Assembly: GCA_015060925.1 (NCBI GenBank)
Contig: SUXM01000011.1
Coordinates: 247-64,246 of the forward strand
Length of the DNA stretch: 64,000 bases
From: Parabacteroides distasonis
GTDB lineage: Bacteria; Bacteroidota; Bacteroidia; Bacteroidales; Tannerellaceae
Reading direction: 5' to 3'
Below the pieces are notes generated by a model that was given only the letters and a program-made list of their open reading frames with translations, ran no database searches and was not told the DNA's origin. A program made the translations under genes and the position numbers. Of this stretch, positions 14,728 through 19,406 are shown piece by piece. Within the stretch, counting starts at the first letter, position 1. The number at the start of each line of letters is the position of its first letter.

Positions 14728-15720
14728 ATGAAAAAGTTCTCTTTATGGATCTGTTTAACAGCCTTATTGATTGGTTGTGCGAGTAGCCATACTGATCGTA
14801 TGGAACCTGTTCATTTAATCCTGGATACCGACTTAGGCCCTGATTATGATGATGTGGGGGCGGTGGCTCTTATGCATGCTTTGGCGGATAGCGGACAAGT
14901 GAATGTATTGGCGACCTTGTCTTCCAATAAAGATGAACGGGTAATCCCCTGCATAGAGGTACTGAATACCTATTTCAAACGTCCGAACCTTCCTGTCGGT
15001 GCACCTAAAAGTGAAGGAGGGGTAAGCATGACAAGCAATCATAAGATTAAGTGGACAGAGGCATTGCCTGCCCATTATCCCCATCATACAAGGCAGACAT
15101 CCGATGCGCCTGATGCGGTGAAGGTGTATCGTCAGGTATTAAGTCGGCAACCGGATAGCAGTGTGGTTATCTGTACCATTGGTTTCTTTACCAATCTGAA
15201 AGACCTTTTGCTTTCCGAGGGTGATGAATATAGTCCGCTTACAGGAAAAGAATTAGTTGCCCGGAAGGTAAAGCGACTCGTCTCCATGGCTGCCGGATTT
15301 CCCAAAGGCAAGGAATTCAACGTGTATTGCGATACGCCTGCCTCCCAAGTCGTCTTTGGACAATGGCCTACCGAGATTGTCTGTAGCGGATTTGAGATCG
15401 GGGAAAAGATTCTTACCGGTAAAAAGGTGACGCAAATGAATGTGGAGGGTAGTCCTGTCAAAGAGACCTATTCACTTTGTTTGGCAGAGGGAGATTTTAA
15501 TGGACGGATGAGTTGGGATCAGACCGCAGTGTTGGTCGCTATAAAAGGATATGAACCCTTTTATACGGTCGAACGTGGTACAGTTCGTATCATCAATGAT
15601 GAAGGTGCGAATGATTGGGTGCCAGATGAAAAAGGAAAACATCTCCGTTTAATAGAGAAAGTACCGGTACAGGAGATGGCCACCCTTATCGAAAACTATA
15701 TGATGCATCAACCCCGATAA
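14728..15720 (+). CDS. Nucleoside hydrolase family lipoprotein
   Basis: ILDTDLGPDYDDVGA motif, SWDQTA, lipobox LLIGC. Confidence 0.85.
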   Translation: MKKFSLWICLTALLIGCASSHTDRMEPVHLILDTDLGPDYDDVGAVALMHALADSGQVNVLATLSSNKDERVIPCIEVLNTYFKRPNLPVGAPKSEGGVSMTSNHKIKWTEALPAHYPHHTRQTSDAPDAVKVYRQVLSRQPDSSVVICTIGFFTNLKDLLLSEGDEYSPLTGKELVARKVKRLVSMAAGFPKGKEFNVYCDTPASQVVFGQWPTEIVCSGFEIGEKILTGKKVTQMNVEGSPVKETYSLCLAEGDFNGRMSWDQTAVLVAIKGYEPFYTVERGTVRIINDEGANDWVPDEKGKHLRLIEKVPVQEMATLIENYMMHQPR

Positions 15721-15740: not shown

Positions 15741-15790
15741 TAAAAAAAAGCATGTGTAAAGGGAAAGCCTCCCTTGCACATGCTTTTTTT
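15741..15790 (+). terminator. Intrinsic terminator
   Basis: aaaaaaagcatgtgtaaaggga...tcccttgcacatgcttttttt. Confidence 0.8.
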
Positions 15791-15808
15791 ATATGCCAAG
15801 TAAAAGAA

Positions 15809-15870
15809 AGTTTCATCCGATGAAACTTTTAGTTTCTCACCTGAAACTCCGAGTTTCATAGGCAGAAACT
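15809..15870. repeat. Three tandem short palindromes AGTTTC-N6/7-GAAACT, 21-22 bp period (REP-like)
   Basis: agtttcatccgatgaaact / agtttctcacctgaaact / agtttcataggcagaaact. Confidence 0.75.
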
Positions 15871-16000
15871 TTTAAATCGATGCCTGTCGGTTGAAGATAG
15901 TTCCCGTTTTTATTGTTAATCTAACTCATTTTAGGCTTTTCTTAATCTTTCTTGATTTAATATTTTTTTTAATATTTTTTATTTGCAATAAAAAAAACTA

Positions 16001-16361
16001 TATCTTTGCTGTGTTCCCATGCCGATTTATTAGGGTGGGAGCAGACATATATGTGAAAGGCGTTTACTTGACGTCTTGTCTTCTATGTTCCAAACTTCGC
16101 AACTTTAGAACTATACAAGGAGGCAGGGCAGCAGTAGATGTCTACGGGATGTGTATATATGCTTTATACCTCAAAAGGTATAAGGTCGTATTTCATATCG
16201 GCGTGGGCTTCTGCGTTGCTTATCCTTGTATAGTAGGCAATGCGAAGGCCTGGAACGTGGGATAAGTAACAGGTACAGATCCCGCGCTTTTTGTATATGT
16301 ATATTCCTTTTTATAGAACCGTCCGGTTCGGGAGCTGCGGACAATAAACTACAAGATTGTT
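16001..16361 (+). promoter_or_regulatory. TATCTTTG promoter and long structured 5' leader with alternative antiterminator/terminator folds
   Basis: Complementary blocks 16088-16135 vs 16207-16255, and 16201-16225 vs 16260-16287 followed by TTTTT. Confidence 0.6.
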
Positions 16362-19300
16362 ATGCGAAAATTTTACGTAGGATTATTACTCTCTTTTTTT
16401 ACATGTTGTATTTGGGGGCAATCAAAGGATGATTTGCAAGAATTATTGGATAGCAAAGGGTTATTGCGTTCGGATGAGGTAACGGTTGTTGATTTATCAA
16501 ACTATTCTTCGTTAGAACGAACACGTCCATTATATGTTCGAAATGGAGGAAAGTTTAAATTTATTAATGGAACATTATTAAGAACTGAACACCTGAAAGA
16601 TAGTGCCATGTTGGTTATTACCAATAATAGTTCTGTAGATTTGGGAGATGGGGCTGAATTGTCCGGAGCAAAAGAGTATAATGAGAAATATATGGTGGAT
16701 TCTGAATTGGAATTGGTCTTAGTTGATCATGGAAAGTTAAGTATTTCATCAGGAAGAATACATAATGTTTTTTCTAATGGTAACTCTTATCTTTTTAGTA
16801 CTTCTTATTACAATCGACGTGCAGTTACGGTTTCTTCTAAAGGAATATTTGAAATGACCGGAGGTATTATTGTAGAATCTACAGTTGAGAATAATGGACA
16901 AATGATTTTTAAGGGAGGACATATAGGATGTGTGAGATCTTATAATGATTTTGAGATGTCAGGTGATGCTTGGTTTTATGATGTTTGTTATGAAAAAGAT
17001 AAGATAATAAAATTATCTTCGGCATTGAAGAATGAGATGACTGTATGGTTGAATGACTTAGCAATAATGAGCACAGCACCTGGTGCTTCGCCTAAGTATA
17101 TAGATTATGATGGAGCGGTGTTAATGACAAGTAATGGTTATGAGATAACAGAAGCCGATTTACAGAAAATACGGTTACAGACTAATCGAAAATATAAATT
17201 AATTTTAGAGAATAGTCATGTTCTTATTCGAAAGGCTGATGATGAAATTAATACACAAAAGGATTTTATTGAAGCAATAGAGAATGCCACAGGAACGTGT
17301 GAATCTCCTACTGAAATAAAAGTGTCGGGTGAGATTCTTCTTGATAGTAAAATAGAAATTAAAAATAAAGGTATAAAACTAACTGGTGGTGGAACTTTGA
17401 AAAGAGCATCCGGGTATTTAGGTGAATTGTTTGTTTTGAATGGTGCTTGTGTCACTTTGGAGAATATTAATTTTGATGGAAATGCTTTTGCCTTTTCTAA
17501 TTATTCAGATTCAGAAATATTAAAATCTCCTATTGTTTTATATAATCAAAGTGTTTTAAAGATAAATGAAGGGACATTGATTAAAAATCATAGAGTAAAT
17601 GATAATCATGCAGGCTTAATATGTGCTTACAGTGCAAGTATGCCTGTTCATTCCTGTTCTGTTATTATGAATGGAGGACAGATAACAAATAATATTGTAC
17701 CTCTTTCTGATATAATAAGTAATACAGATCCTTATTTGTCTGATTTTTATGTCAAAATAAATGGGGGAATTATTTCAAACAATCGTTGTCTTTCATTGGT
17801 TGTTGCAAATGATGTGGATATTTTAGATGTTTATATAGTTGATAATAATACTAATAATAGTATTATTCGATTTGAGACAGGATGGATTCAGAATTTTGAG
17901 AATGGAATACCTGGTTTTATTTCTGTGTCTTCTAATGTGATTTTACAAAATACAACAAATGTATCCTCTTTTATATTAGCGGGAGAGAATGCATTTATTT
18001 ATAGGTTTGGTGAATTCAAAAATAAAATAAACATAAAACATTCTTCTTATTATGAGAATAAATTAATTACAGGTACTGCAATTGTTAAAGGTTGGCAAGG
18101 TTATGAATTGACAGAAAAAGATCTGTCTATGTGTCATTATGAGAGTGATAAATGGGAACTTGAATTGAAGGATAATGCTTTTGTTTTAAAAGAAAAAGGT
18201 TCAAGTTCTCAAGATGAGATTAAGAATGGTGATGATTTGCAAGATTTCTTGGATGGTTTAGTTGAAAAAGGAACAACAGGTACAGAAAAAGAACCTATTG
18301 ATATTATTTTAGGTGGTGGAGTTAATGATGGTATTACATTGGGTGTTTTCCCAAAAATAAGAATATATGTTAATATGCATATTCGTATTGTTGGTGGAAC
18401 TTTTGTTCGTGGAACAGGCGTAGATGCATCTTATGACGGAACTATGTTTGATGTAGCTGAAGGTGCTAGTGTCGTTTTTGAGAATGTGACGATTGATGGA
18501 GGAAAACGTGATTTTCCTAATAGTTTGATAAAAGCCGGAGGTACAGTTTATATTACGGGAACAACTATAATTAAAAATGGTTCGGGTAATGGTTTATATG
18601 GAGGAGCTGTTTATATCCCTATAGGAGGTCGTGTTGTAATGTCAGGAGGTACAATTACTGAAAATTATGGAACACAAGGTGCTGCATTCTTTAATAATGG
18701 AACTTTAATTATTAATGGAGGCTTAATTTATGGTAATAGCGGAACAATTGGAGTTATTGTTAATAACGGAGGATCAAGCTTTACTTTGAATGGAGGTTCT
18801 ATATATGACAATACAGGTTTACAAATGGGCGGTATATTTAATGGGGATGGTTCAACTATCTTTATTAATAATGGAATAATAGATGGAAATAATGTCTTTG
18901 ATTTTTATACATGGGTGAATATTATAATAAACGGAGGTGTTCAAATTAATGGTCCATTAGCCTTATTGCCCCCTGCAAAATTATTGATAACTTCTAAATT
19001 AGAGTATACAATTTATTTGACAATTATTGTAAATGTATTTGTCAATGGAACAGTTATTGCTGAGGGACATAATGGATATAAATTGACGGAACAGGATTTA
19101 TCTCATATTTATTTTGTAAATGAAAAATGGGAATTAAAATTACAAGATAATACAATCGTTCTTGTAGAGAAAAGTCCTGCTACAGCCATTGAGGATGTAT
19201 CGAATACAAAGGTTGTATATGTTGAAAATAATAATTTAGTGTTAAAAGGGCAAATAGTAGGAGAACCTTATTATATTTATTCAATCAATGGACACTTAGT

Positions 19301-19406
19301 GCATAAAGGATTGATAGATAGCGATTATACTCAATATTTATTGAAAGAAAAGGGCATAATGATTGTTAAATGTGGAAATAAGACATATAAAGTTGTAAAT
19401 AAATAG
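16362..19406 (+). CDS. Large secreted modular beta-helix-like protein with T9SS C-terminal sorting-domain-like tail
   Basis: Signal peptide; three repeats of GY[EK][IL]TE.DL; G/N-rich strands; C-terminus TAIEDVSN...YIYSINGHLV...KGIMIVKCGNKTYKVVNK; visibly AT-rich. Confidence 0.75.
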   Translation: MRKFYVGLLLSFFTCCIWGQSKDDLQELLDSKGLLRSDEVTVVDLSNYSSLERTRPLYVRNGGKFKFINGTLLRTEHLKDSAMLVITNNSSVDLGDGAELSGAKEYNEKYMVDSELELVLVDHGKLSISSGRIHNVFSNGNSYLFSTSYYNRRAVTVSSKGIFEMTGGIIVESTVENNGQMIFKGGHIGCVRSYNDFEMSGDAWFYDVCYEKDKIIKLSSALKNEMTVWLNDLAIMSTAPGASPKYIDYDGAVLMTSNGYEITEADLQKIRLQTNRKYKLILENSHVLIRKADDEINTQKDFIEAIENATGTCESPTEIKVSGEILLDSKIEIKNKGIKLTGGGTLKRASGYLGELFVLNGACVTLENINFDGNAFAFSNYSDSEILKSPIVLYNQSVLKINEGTLIKNHRVNDNHAGLICAYSASMPVHSCSVIMNGGQITNNIVPLSDIISNTDPYLSDFYVKINGGIISNNRCLSLVVANDVDILDVYIVDNNTNNSIIRFETGWIQNFENGIPGFISVSSNVILQNTTNVSSFILAGENAFIYRFGEFKNKINIKHSSYYENKLITGTAIVKGWQGYELTEKDLSMCHYESDKWELELKDNAFVLKEKGSSSQDEIKNGDDLQDFLDGLVEKGTTGTEKEPIDIILGGGVNDGITLGVFPKIRIYVNMHIRIVGGTFVRGTGVDASYDGTMFDVAEGASVVFENVTIDGGKRDFPNSLIKAGGTVYITGTTIIKNGSGNGLYGGAVYIPIGGRVVMSGGTITENYGTQGAAFFNNGTLIINGGLIYGNSGTIGVIVNNGGSSFTLNGGSIYDNTGLQMGGIFNGDGSTIFINNGIIDGNNVFDFYTWVNIIINGGVQINGPLALLPPAKLLITSKLEYTIYLTIIVNVFVNGTVIAEGHNGYKLTEQDLSHIYFVNEKWELKLQDNTIVLVEKSPATAIEDVSNTKVVYVENNNLVLKGQIVGEPYYIYSINGHLVHKGLIDSDYTQYLLKEKGIMIVKCGNKTYKVVNK

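Follow-up and report, generated by a model that had tools for sequence, protein, structure and literature searches.

Positions 16001–16361 of the window (the whole 64,000-nucleotide stretch of Parabacteroides distasonis DNA that was analysed) lie between two genes. Upstream, a nucleoside-hydrolase gene (14728–15720) is followed by its own terminator hairpin (15743–15790). Downstream, a 1014-codon ORF occupies 16362–19406 on the + strand, which is also the strand of the leader and all of its parts described below. The promoter elements were read from the sequence: the -7 box, TATCTTTG, is present at 16001–16008, where the earlier note had placed a promoter string, and a possible -33 element, TTTG, lies at 15981–15984. 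Transcription would start near 16013–16016, a few bases past the TATCTTTG box. No second promoter was found between the leader and the gene at 16362.

The product of the downstream gene is a secreted protein of 1014 aa, to which no family was assigned. The gene had been described in the earlier note as an accessory gene for T9SS cargo. The first half of this description stands, as partial matches (24–41% identity) were found in just 10 of 60 genomes of the same genus, indicating that the window's gene is accessory. The second half is unproven: the protein matched none of the T9SS C-terminal domain families, and DUF6383 aligned with its last 72 residues only below threshold (16.2 bits against a cut-off of 23.7). 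It is possible that the protein is T9SS cargo, because sprA lies two genes upstream. When the loci of five homologues of this protein were inspected, one carried a fragment of the leader within the flanking DNA examined.

The RNA begins with a 5' hairpin, H0 (CCCAUGCC...GGGUGGG, 16012–16043), which is present in the MFE folds. Region 1 (16055–16084) provides the 5' strands, and region 2 (16120–16146) the 3' strands, of helices P1 (16059–16068 with 16133–16142) and P2 (16073–16083 with 16120–16129); both helices are 83–90% paired among the copies of the family, with compensatory changes. Between the two regions lie hairpin P3 (16089–16109), whose loop CUUCGCA (16095–16101) is complementary to the loop of hairpin PB3, and the hypervariable segment X (16103–16122), the partner of segment Y (16222–16238). 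An apical hairpin (16147–16199), varying in length and sequence among copies, separates regions 2 and 3, and its inner stem (16157–16191) confirmed the inner hairpin anticipated by the earlier note. Region 3 (16200–16226), the alternative partner of region 2 and as such the putative antiterminator, carries the 5' strands of helices PB1 (GGCGUGGG; 16200–16207 with 16280–16288) and PB2 (GUUGCUUAUCCU; 16215–16226 with 16259–16270). It is followed by a block (16222–16255) made up of segment Y, hairpin PB3 (stem 16235–16238 with 16248–16251; loop UGCGAAG, 16241–16247) and UGGAA (16251–16255). The last part (16259–16293) is composed of region 4, i.e., the 3' strands of PB2 and PB1 ending in CCCGCGCU, and a U5 run; together with region 3, it constitutes an intrinsic terminator.

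Two elements lie beyond the U-run. GUAUAUGUAU (16294–16303) is complementary to ACAUAUAU (16045–16052); this pairing is moderately conserved (68% paired in the family) and, judged from the sequence, would extend the rod described below in read-through transcripts only. A post-terminator hairpin, GUCCG-GUUCGGGAGCUG-CGGAC (16321–16342), ends 19 nt 5' of the start codon. In the family, 41 of 129 copies have a GGGRA-loop hairpin with a covarying stem 3' of the terminator and 5' of the start codon, compared with 8.2 expected from shuffles; the window's own hairpin falls outside this count, as it is a GGGAG loop variant that was assigned by eye. At the other end of the leader, the 5' arm of H0, CCCAUGCCGAU, is complementary over 11 nt to AUCGGCGUGGG of region 3 (16197–16207), and the duplex in the window amounts to -20.5 kcal/mol. 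The CACGCCGA motif of this H0 layer was found in only 22 of the 133 copies, so the layer is specific to a subgroup; in the window's subgroup, the 5' arm of H0 may be an additional antiterminator layer.

The earlier note had proposed a long interrupted duplex in this leader and, for its 3' arm, a competing set of partners downstream. The duplex strings TTCCA (16088–16092)/TGGAA (16251–16255) and CTTCGCA (16095–16101)/TGCGAAG (16241–16247) occur in the sequence as listed, and ACTATACAAGGA (16110–16121) is complementary to TCCTTGTATAGT (16223–16234) at 12 of 12 positions. For a further segment given as GCAGCAGT/GCTTCTGC, a pairing does exist, but the strings were imprecise, the actual pairing being GGCAGC.GUAGA with UCUGC.GUUGCU. 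The downstream partners pair with one G.U each (GCGTGGG, 16201–16207, with CCCGCGC, 16281–16287; GTTGCTTATCC, 16215–16225, with GGATAAGTAAC, 16260–16270), TTTTT is found at 16289–16293, and the proposed sequestration of GGAGGCAGG by CTTGTCTTC proved to be helix P2.

Two folds and the nucleotides they share

The RNA from 16010 to 16361 had an MFE of -136.8 kcal/mol, compared with -95.7 +/- 5.3 kcal/mol for 100 dinucleotide shuffles (z = -7.75), none of which matched the native energy. RNAalifold applied to 22 same-genus copies yielded a two-domain fold. Domain A consists of P1, P2 and hairpin P3, whereas domain B, the terminator, consists of PB1, PB2 and hairpin PB3, followed by U5. In this fold, 96% of cells were paired in the 22 sequences and 89.5% in a family alignment of 133 diverse, non-identical copies, and the value fell to 36–57% when the partners were slid by 1–3 columns. 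The terminator helices were paired in 92.7% (PB1) and 95.4% (PB2) of cells across the 133 copies, compensatory changes were found at 7 of the 10 PB2 pairs, and 104 of 130 copies have a run of at least four U after the terminator stem. In the window, the intrinsic terminator (GGCGUGGG...CCCGCGCU then U5, 16200–16293) separates the gene from its promoter. Many pairs in the helices are G.U (GU:94 and UG:86 in P1, GU:92 in PB1). As such pairs would be A.C on the opposite strand, the folding strand is the sense strand, namely the transcript.

The MFE form of the same RNA is a rod of about 250 nt with arms at 16045–16171 and 16176–16300. Its helices, region 2 with region 3 and region 1 with region 4, conflict with P1/P2 and PB1/PB2. 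When the pairing of this rod was mapped from the window's MFE onto the family, 80.9% of cells were paired. Changes on both sides of a pair were found in 33 of 48 pairs (444 cells) for the two-domain fold and in 1008 cells for the rod fold across the 133 copies, and in neither case did any of 500 shuffles reach the native level, albeit these shuffle controls overstate significance because the 133 sequences are related. The 2:3 helices, which sequester the terminator strand, are 82–95% paired and show compensatory changes. The UUCCA/UGGAA helix (16088/16251) is ~95% paired, and each of its positions shows three to four pair types.

Individual nucleotides appeared to answer to more than one partner. 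Coupled covariation was found at 16091, with the triples GCC:44, CGG:18 and AUU:14, and at 16261, with AUU:49, GUU:22 and GCC:19. C16219 has changed to U in 24 copies; at either of its two G partners, only 7–8 of these copies have A, and the others retain a G.U wobble. Many other changes are likewise tolerated as G.U wobble with the alternative partner. Region 1 can also fold locally into a hairpin, P-alpha (16057–16064 with 16070–16077), which is 90.2% paired in the 133 copies, and position 16060 covaries with three different partners. Part of the covariation of the terminator fold is not explained by the rod, i.e., that of 16060:16141 (GC:71 / AU:23) and that in PB2 (UA:55 / CG:34). The coupled covariations indicate that both folds matter and that both partner sets are under selection. 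Thus, the switch topology of alternative 1:2, 2:3 and 3:4 pairings claimed in the earlier note is borne out, as compensatory changes over 133 copies of the family back the terminator fold as well as the long-range fold that competes with it.

The two halves of the molecule also match each other outside these regions. The loop of P3 (CUUCGCA) can pair with that of PB3 (UGCGAAG) in 929 of 931 cells (99.8%), and two adjacent loop-loop pairs covary (CG:90 / UA:42 and UA:90 / CG:42). A swap of CU/AG to UC/GA gives the UCUCGCA/UGCGAGA class found in 42 copies; one relative carries UCUAGCA/UGCUAGA, and the window's own paralogues carry UCUCGAC/GUCGAGA and UCGCCAA/UUGGCGA. Overall, there are at least five loop sequence classes, three of which occur within the window's genome in two copies each. 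Most of the 133 sequences were recruited by a PB3-loop pattern in which the 3' loop was fixed and its partner left free. Conservation of the PB3 loop and stem is therefore by construction, a reservation from which the covariation of the partner is exempt.

Segments X and Y are matched copy by copy. The X:Y duplex had a mean energy of -12.5 kcal/mol for cognate and -5.5 kcal/mol for non-cognate combinations, and for 129 of the 133 copies the cognate partner was the better one, its median rank being 1 of 133. We used these duplex energies together with the partner assignment in the MFE, instead of an alignment-based rod energy for the family, which is unreliable because MAFFT misaligns the hypervariable X:Y region.

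A leader family ahead of unrelated genes

BLAST found a single copy of the leader in the window's genome. Covariance-model and profile searches extended this count: a covariance model of the terminator domain (R1) detected six copies (C34, C24, C14, C20 and two on C32), that is, five paralogues besides the window's leader, so diverged that BLAST returned one match alone. Of 24 genomes of the same genus, 15 gave BLAST matches at 68–80% identity, a single genome having as many as 8. The terminator-domain model matched 30 of 148 genera sampled evenly across Bacteroidales and found as many as 11 copies in a genome. A 17-mer taken from one of the conserved loops matched at least 120 stretches when one genome per species was considered, as well as 29 viral-labelled contigs, and a profile search found the element in 130 of 149 loci drawn from the 17-mer matches listed. 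The carriers among the matches listed belong to Prevotella, Bacteroides, Parabacteroides, Paraprevotella, Leyella, Muribaculaceae, Paludibacteraceae and Porphyromonadaceae, and the closest copy outside the window's genome, again among the matches listed, was found in Parabacteroides sp. ASD2025. Bacteroides clarus YIT 12056, Paraprevotella clara YIT 11840 and Prevotella ihumii are further isolates that carry family members.

The copies share one layout, in which a TAnnTTTG promoter is followed by a structured RNA of ~280 nt, an intrinsic terminator with a U-run and a gene without its own promoter. A strict TAnnTTTG was present at the matching position in 109 of 130 copies and a loose one in 10 more, the background in random windows of 130 nt being 5.9%. 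Past the terminator, a further promoter box ahead of the gene was found in 6 of 130 copies, which equals background. We thus consider that the gene relies on the leader's promoter and on read-through, and this dependence makes the RNA a leader and not simply an sRNA gene that lies nearby. All 23 same-genus copies that were aligned, like the window, have an ORF on the same strand starting 303–401 nt from the 5' end, and these ORFs are mutually unrelated.

Nothing in Rfam 15 overlapped 16010–16361 even at E up to 10, the whole window gave two tRNAs only, and 17 diverse family members had no match either, which agrees with the earlier view of this RNA as uncharacterised. A full-text literature search did not find a description of the leader family, and a 2026 review of gut-commensal sRNAs makes no mention of any leader or attenuator. 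The leader motif strings were absent from the portion of Fremin and Bhatt (2021) covered here, 200 of 408 supplementary files; HMP2_1881, another promoter-proximal rod of Bacteroidetes from that study, is unrelated in sequence to the leader family. As far as sequence comparison can tell, this is a large RNA family, new to Rfam 15 and to the literature searched, that resembles a terminator/antiterminator attenuator.

The genes behind the leaders had been suspected to be accessory in other Bacteroidales as well, and more than 130 homologues of the leader indeed stand before unrelated accessory genes. A Pfam catalogue of 89 downstream ORFs assigned BspA-type LRR to 13, PAPS reductase to 5, ResIII to 4 and LytTR to 3; DNA methylases, UvrD and Schlafen-type helicases, STAND NTPase and FHA were further types. 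On the viral-labelled contigs, products of the downstream genes include a C5 methylase, a BspA protein of 1737 aa, an EF-Tu-like GTPase and a PAPS-reductase/DUF4007 protein.

We surveyed several candidates for the trigger. A regulator encoded next door was rejected, as the upstream neighbours are unrelated: 84 Pfam families were found among 99 upstream neighbours, none of them in more than three. A ribosome-mediated attenuator was also rejected, since no conserved leader peptide or short ORF covers segment 1. The window has only ATG frames of 1–7 codons (16019, 16050 and 16085), and the start codons of these mini-frames are absent in relatives. A T-box leader was dismissed because Rfam gave no T-box match at E up to 10, and no aminoacyl-tRNA or amino-acid genes stand behind the leaders. 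In one relative (L075), the leader lies directly 5' of a gene for a UpxY-like NusG paralog (NusG and KOW domains). Nevertheless, the window's genome has three NusG-family genes, none with an adjacent leader, and two genomes that are nearly complete and contain 6 and 5 leaders possess one NusG each, the housekeeping one. It follows that the general trigger cannot be a dedicated paralog of NusG, and UpxY is disfavoured as a general partner.

A proposed kinetic attenuator and its alternatives

Co-transcriptional fold prediction on growing transcripts of the window gave domain A for transcripts reaching as far as 16200. After the emergence of region 3 (16226), the predicted optimum becomes P-alpha plus the 2:3 pairing, and after that of Y (16258), a half-rod of -107.5 kcal/mol is predicted. 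At the decision point (RNA 16045–16288), the terminator fold has -76.3 kcal/mol and the MFE -103.5 kcal/mol, a gap of about 27; the family means are similar (-75.6 for the terminator fold and -103.7 kcal/mol for the optimum), and the MFE pairs region 3 upstream in 123 of 133 copies. As the rod is far more stable, the terminator fold is metastable and must be kinetically trapped, and the outcome should consequently depend on the speed or pausing of the polymerase, or on a factor holding domain A or P-alpha.

We regard the element as probably a cis-acting leader that gates transcription of the downstream gene by a co-transcriptional choice between two folds, in other words, a kinetically controlled attenuator. 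In the proposed course of events, regions 1 and 2 would pair first and form P1 and P2, i.e., domain A. If domain A is intact as regions 3 and 4 emerge, these would fold into the GC-rich two-part hairpin followed by U5, and the polymerase would halt near 16293 (OFF). If region 2 is instead handed over to region 3, the terminator would be blocked and the polymerase would enter the 1014-codon gene (ON). The hand-over would be aided by X:Y pairing, by pairing of the complementary loops and by region 1 folding into P-alpha, and region 4 would then zip onto region 1 to complete a rod of about 125 base pairs. The terminator would thus work only if domain A survives for ~1 second while regions 3 and 4 are made. 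We infer that termination actually takes place and that the folds are assigned to ON and OFF in this way. The rod might still terminate by itself, as a short stem, GGCGU / GCGCU, lies directly 5' of the U-run; if so, the rod would not be an ON state.

Several known systems offer a comparison. Like trp-type and pyr leaders, the element is promoter-proximal, with a 3:4 intrinsic terminator, a competing 2:3 pairing and a deciding 1:2 pairing, and like the pyr/PyrR leaders it has an extra upstream layer (here P-alpha, and H0 in the window's subgroup). Unlike trp and pyr leaders, the family (i) has no leader peptide or known binding protein, (ii) is three to four times larger, (iii) pairs its halves also by a copy-specific helix of 10–20 bp and complementary loops, (iv) has segments 1 and 4 that close a full-length rod after read-through, and (v) serves dozens of unrelated accessory genes instead of one pathway. 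A kinetically trapped early fold facing a far stabler long-range fold, with three-way coupled covariations, also characterizes the hok mRNAs of the plasmid R1 type, for which Gultyaev, Franch and Gerdes reportedly described in 1997 metastable co-transcriptional hairpins, 5'-3' long-range pairing and coupled covariations. The hok system differs in that it controls translation and antisense access in a toxin-antitoxin system, whereas the folds described here surround a transcription terminator; we know of no antisense RNA for the leader family.

The P4 CI and P1/P7 c4 immunity RNAs, to which the leader had been loosely likened, are also leader-derived RNAs with boxes complementary within the same transcription unit. 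Those RNAs, however, are processed and act in trans on defined targets, while here the boxes are two loops of one molecule, and there is no sequence or Rfam similarity to the leader; the likeness is an analogy only. Within the Bacteroidales, UpxY proteins prevent premature termination in the leaders of Bacteroides capsule loci (PMC7315117). The UpxY-dependent 5' UTRs resemble the present family as Bacteroidales leaders with a premature stop unless rescued, and L075 precedes a UpxY-like gene, but the window copy and nearly all others have no upxY downstream. FopS comprises trans-acting sRNAs of 65–70 nt that repress susC translation (PMC11697453). FopS and GibS share with the leader its multicopy nature, sigma-ABfr-type promoters and occurrence in Bacteroidales, while the leader is ~280 nt long, sits in cis upstream of a gene and is unrelated in sequence; membership of this group was rejected on length and architecture.

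Other readings of the same features need to be weighed. A stand-alone, terminated sRNA of ~280 nt, acting in trans (e.g., via its loops or P-alpha) with read-through being incidental, could account for the element having its own promoter and terminator, for the high sequence conservation of the loops and P-alpha, and for its multiple copies, as known in the Bacteroides sRNA family FopS; the rod would, in addition, be a very stable RNA. We nevertheless find this unlikely, since a same-strand gene follows the element within about 50–110 nt in all aligned same-genus copies and the window, that gene's own promoter is at background (6/130), the terminator is followed by another conserved hairpin ahead of the start codon, and the conserved loops are complementary within one molecule. 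A role as an sRNA and one as a cis leader are not mutually exclusive. The element could alternatively serve processing or stability without any switch, the rod being the sole functional form, either as a target of RNase III cleavage or as protection for the mRNA, and the terminator fold a by-product. RNase III could plausibly act on a duplex of about 125 bp, in 123 of 133 copies the rod is the fold favoured thermodynamically, and the complementarity reaches beyond the U-run (16045–16052 with 16294–16300), where it is relevant to read-through RNA only. What makes this reading improbable is that some compensatory changes belong to the terminator fold and are left unexplained by the rod (16060:16141 and PB2), that the U-run is conserved and that the coupled covariations reflect selection for both partner sets.

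A ligand-sensing riboswitch, in which domain A or the helix junctions bind a small molecule or second messenger and one fold is stabilised, appears very unlikely. No known aptamer was matched in Rfam, the downstream genes have no common metabolic theme, and no conserved internal loop or junction stood out as a candidate pocket for a ligand. The conserved sequence is found mostly in two-partner helices, and two partners for each helix strand explain its slow change without a ligand. The features that would suit a riboswitch are a large conserved structured domain ahead of a terminator, several invariant nucleotides beyond what pairing explains, and many unrelated downstream genes, as is the case for the c-di-GMP riboswitch class. 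Finally, it is extremely improbable that the element acts as DNA, be it a MITE, a cruciform, a recombinase site or a single-strand promoter of a conjugative leading region, even though it is multicopy, near-palindromic over about 250 bp and frequent in mobile/defence islands and viral-labelled contigs. A single-strand DNA promoter or cruciform was rejected because the many G.U pairs of the helices would be A.C mismatches on the other strand. The orientation relative to promoter and gene is fixed, the copies differ by compensatory substitutions and are not near-identical, and no terminal repeats or target duplications were seen in the flanks when the same-genus alignment was examined by eye. 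A MITE or REP-type repeat was likewise rejected, given the diverged copies, all co-oriented with the downstream gene, and the strand-specific G.U pairs.

Returning to the attenuator, its design is unusual: a metastable terminator fold is combined with a far stabler rod, a copy-specific docking helix and covarying kissing loops. It is attractive to speculate, albeit we hold it to be quite unlikely, that the leaders of one genome form an RNA network, in which terminated leaders dock in trans via their loops onto nascent siblings of the same loop class and bias their folds. The copy-specific X:Y helix would, in such a network, keep full zipping intramolecular. If a network of this kind exists, it would coordinate which accessory surface and defence genes are on, and would be a counterpart of UpxZ cross-inhibition or P4 CI immunity that consists of RNA alone.

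If the attenuator model holds, the leader would be a common, portable RNA gate in gut and rumen Bacteroidales. The groups bearing it would include Prevotella, Bacteroides, Parabacteroides, Paraprevotella, Muribaculaceae and Paludibacteraceae, and the genes gated would be those for BspA-type surface proteins, restriction-modification and anti-phage functions, regulators and at least one capsule-type operon. Such a gate would represent a new large class of cis-regulatory RNA in bacteria with very few known RNA regulators. The leader offers a natural model for kinetically controlled RNA switching, and it could serve as a compact expression-control part for Bacteroides engineering. For the bacteria themselves, it would add an extra layer of control over genes that shape phage resistance and interaction with the host.

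Leader copies in the genome and on viral-labelled contigs

Besides the copy in the window, the same genome (G000) carries five diverged paralogues of the leader, at C24:41335-41428 on the minus strand and, on the plus strand, at C14:115213-115305, C20:29831-29927, C32:53309-53409 and C32:54710-54809. The two copies on contig C32, separated by 1.4 kb, represent a tandem duplication. When the copies of the genome were classified by the sequence of their kissing loops (i.e., the complementary hairpin loops of P3 and PB3), three classes with two copies each were recognized. The genes behind the five paralogues encode lipoproteins, secreted proteins and zinc-ribbon membrane proteins. Complete leaders were also found on at least 13 contigs from IMG/VR (among L161-L186), which are viral by label and could be either true phages or islands. 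The genes following these leaders encode a methylase, a helicase, PAPS-reductase/DUF4007, an EF-Tu-like GTPase and BspA.

Small elements within and around the leader

The 5' element with the highest sequence conservation in the leader family is a small hairpin, P-alpha (window 16057-16077; AAGGCGUU-UACUU-GACGUCUU), which is followed by a U-rich stretch and offers region 1 (the 5' strands of helices P1 and P2) a third way to pair. P-alpha is a candidate for a binding site or a pause hairpin.

Between the leader terminator and the start codon, a GGGAG-loop hairpin was assigned by eye from the alignment (16321-16342). A conserved GGGRA-loop hairpin with a covarying stem occupies the equivalent place in 41 of the 129 relatives, a count that excludes the GGGAG variant of the window. 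No match to this hairpin was found in Rfam, and it may serve as a protein site or as an element for translation or stability.

A short distance upstream of the leader promoter lies a palindromic unit of ~70 nt (15806-15875; AAAGTTTCA...GAAACTTT) comprising three small hairpins. This sharply bordered unit is dispersed over no fewer than 11 sites in the genome, where the repeat mostly occurs as paired hairpin motifs with 43 nt spacing, and it looks REP- or MITE-like.

Relation to known leader RNAs

The supplementary alignment of PMC8040213 contains HMP2_1881, a rod-shaped Bacteroidetes RNA of about 108 nt, reported there to be expressed and located upstream of radical-SAM 'mobile pair' genes. 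Like the leader family, HMP2_1881 is a promoter-proximal rod; the two are unrelated in sequence. At L075:3387-4422, a family member immediately precedes a UpxY-like gene encoding NusG and KOW domains. PMC7315117 reports that UpxY prevents premature termination in capsule-type leaders; the position of the L075 leader links the family to leaders of this type.
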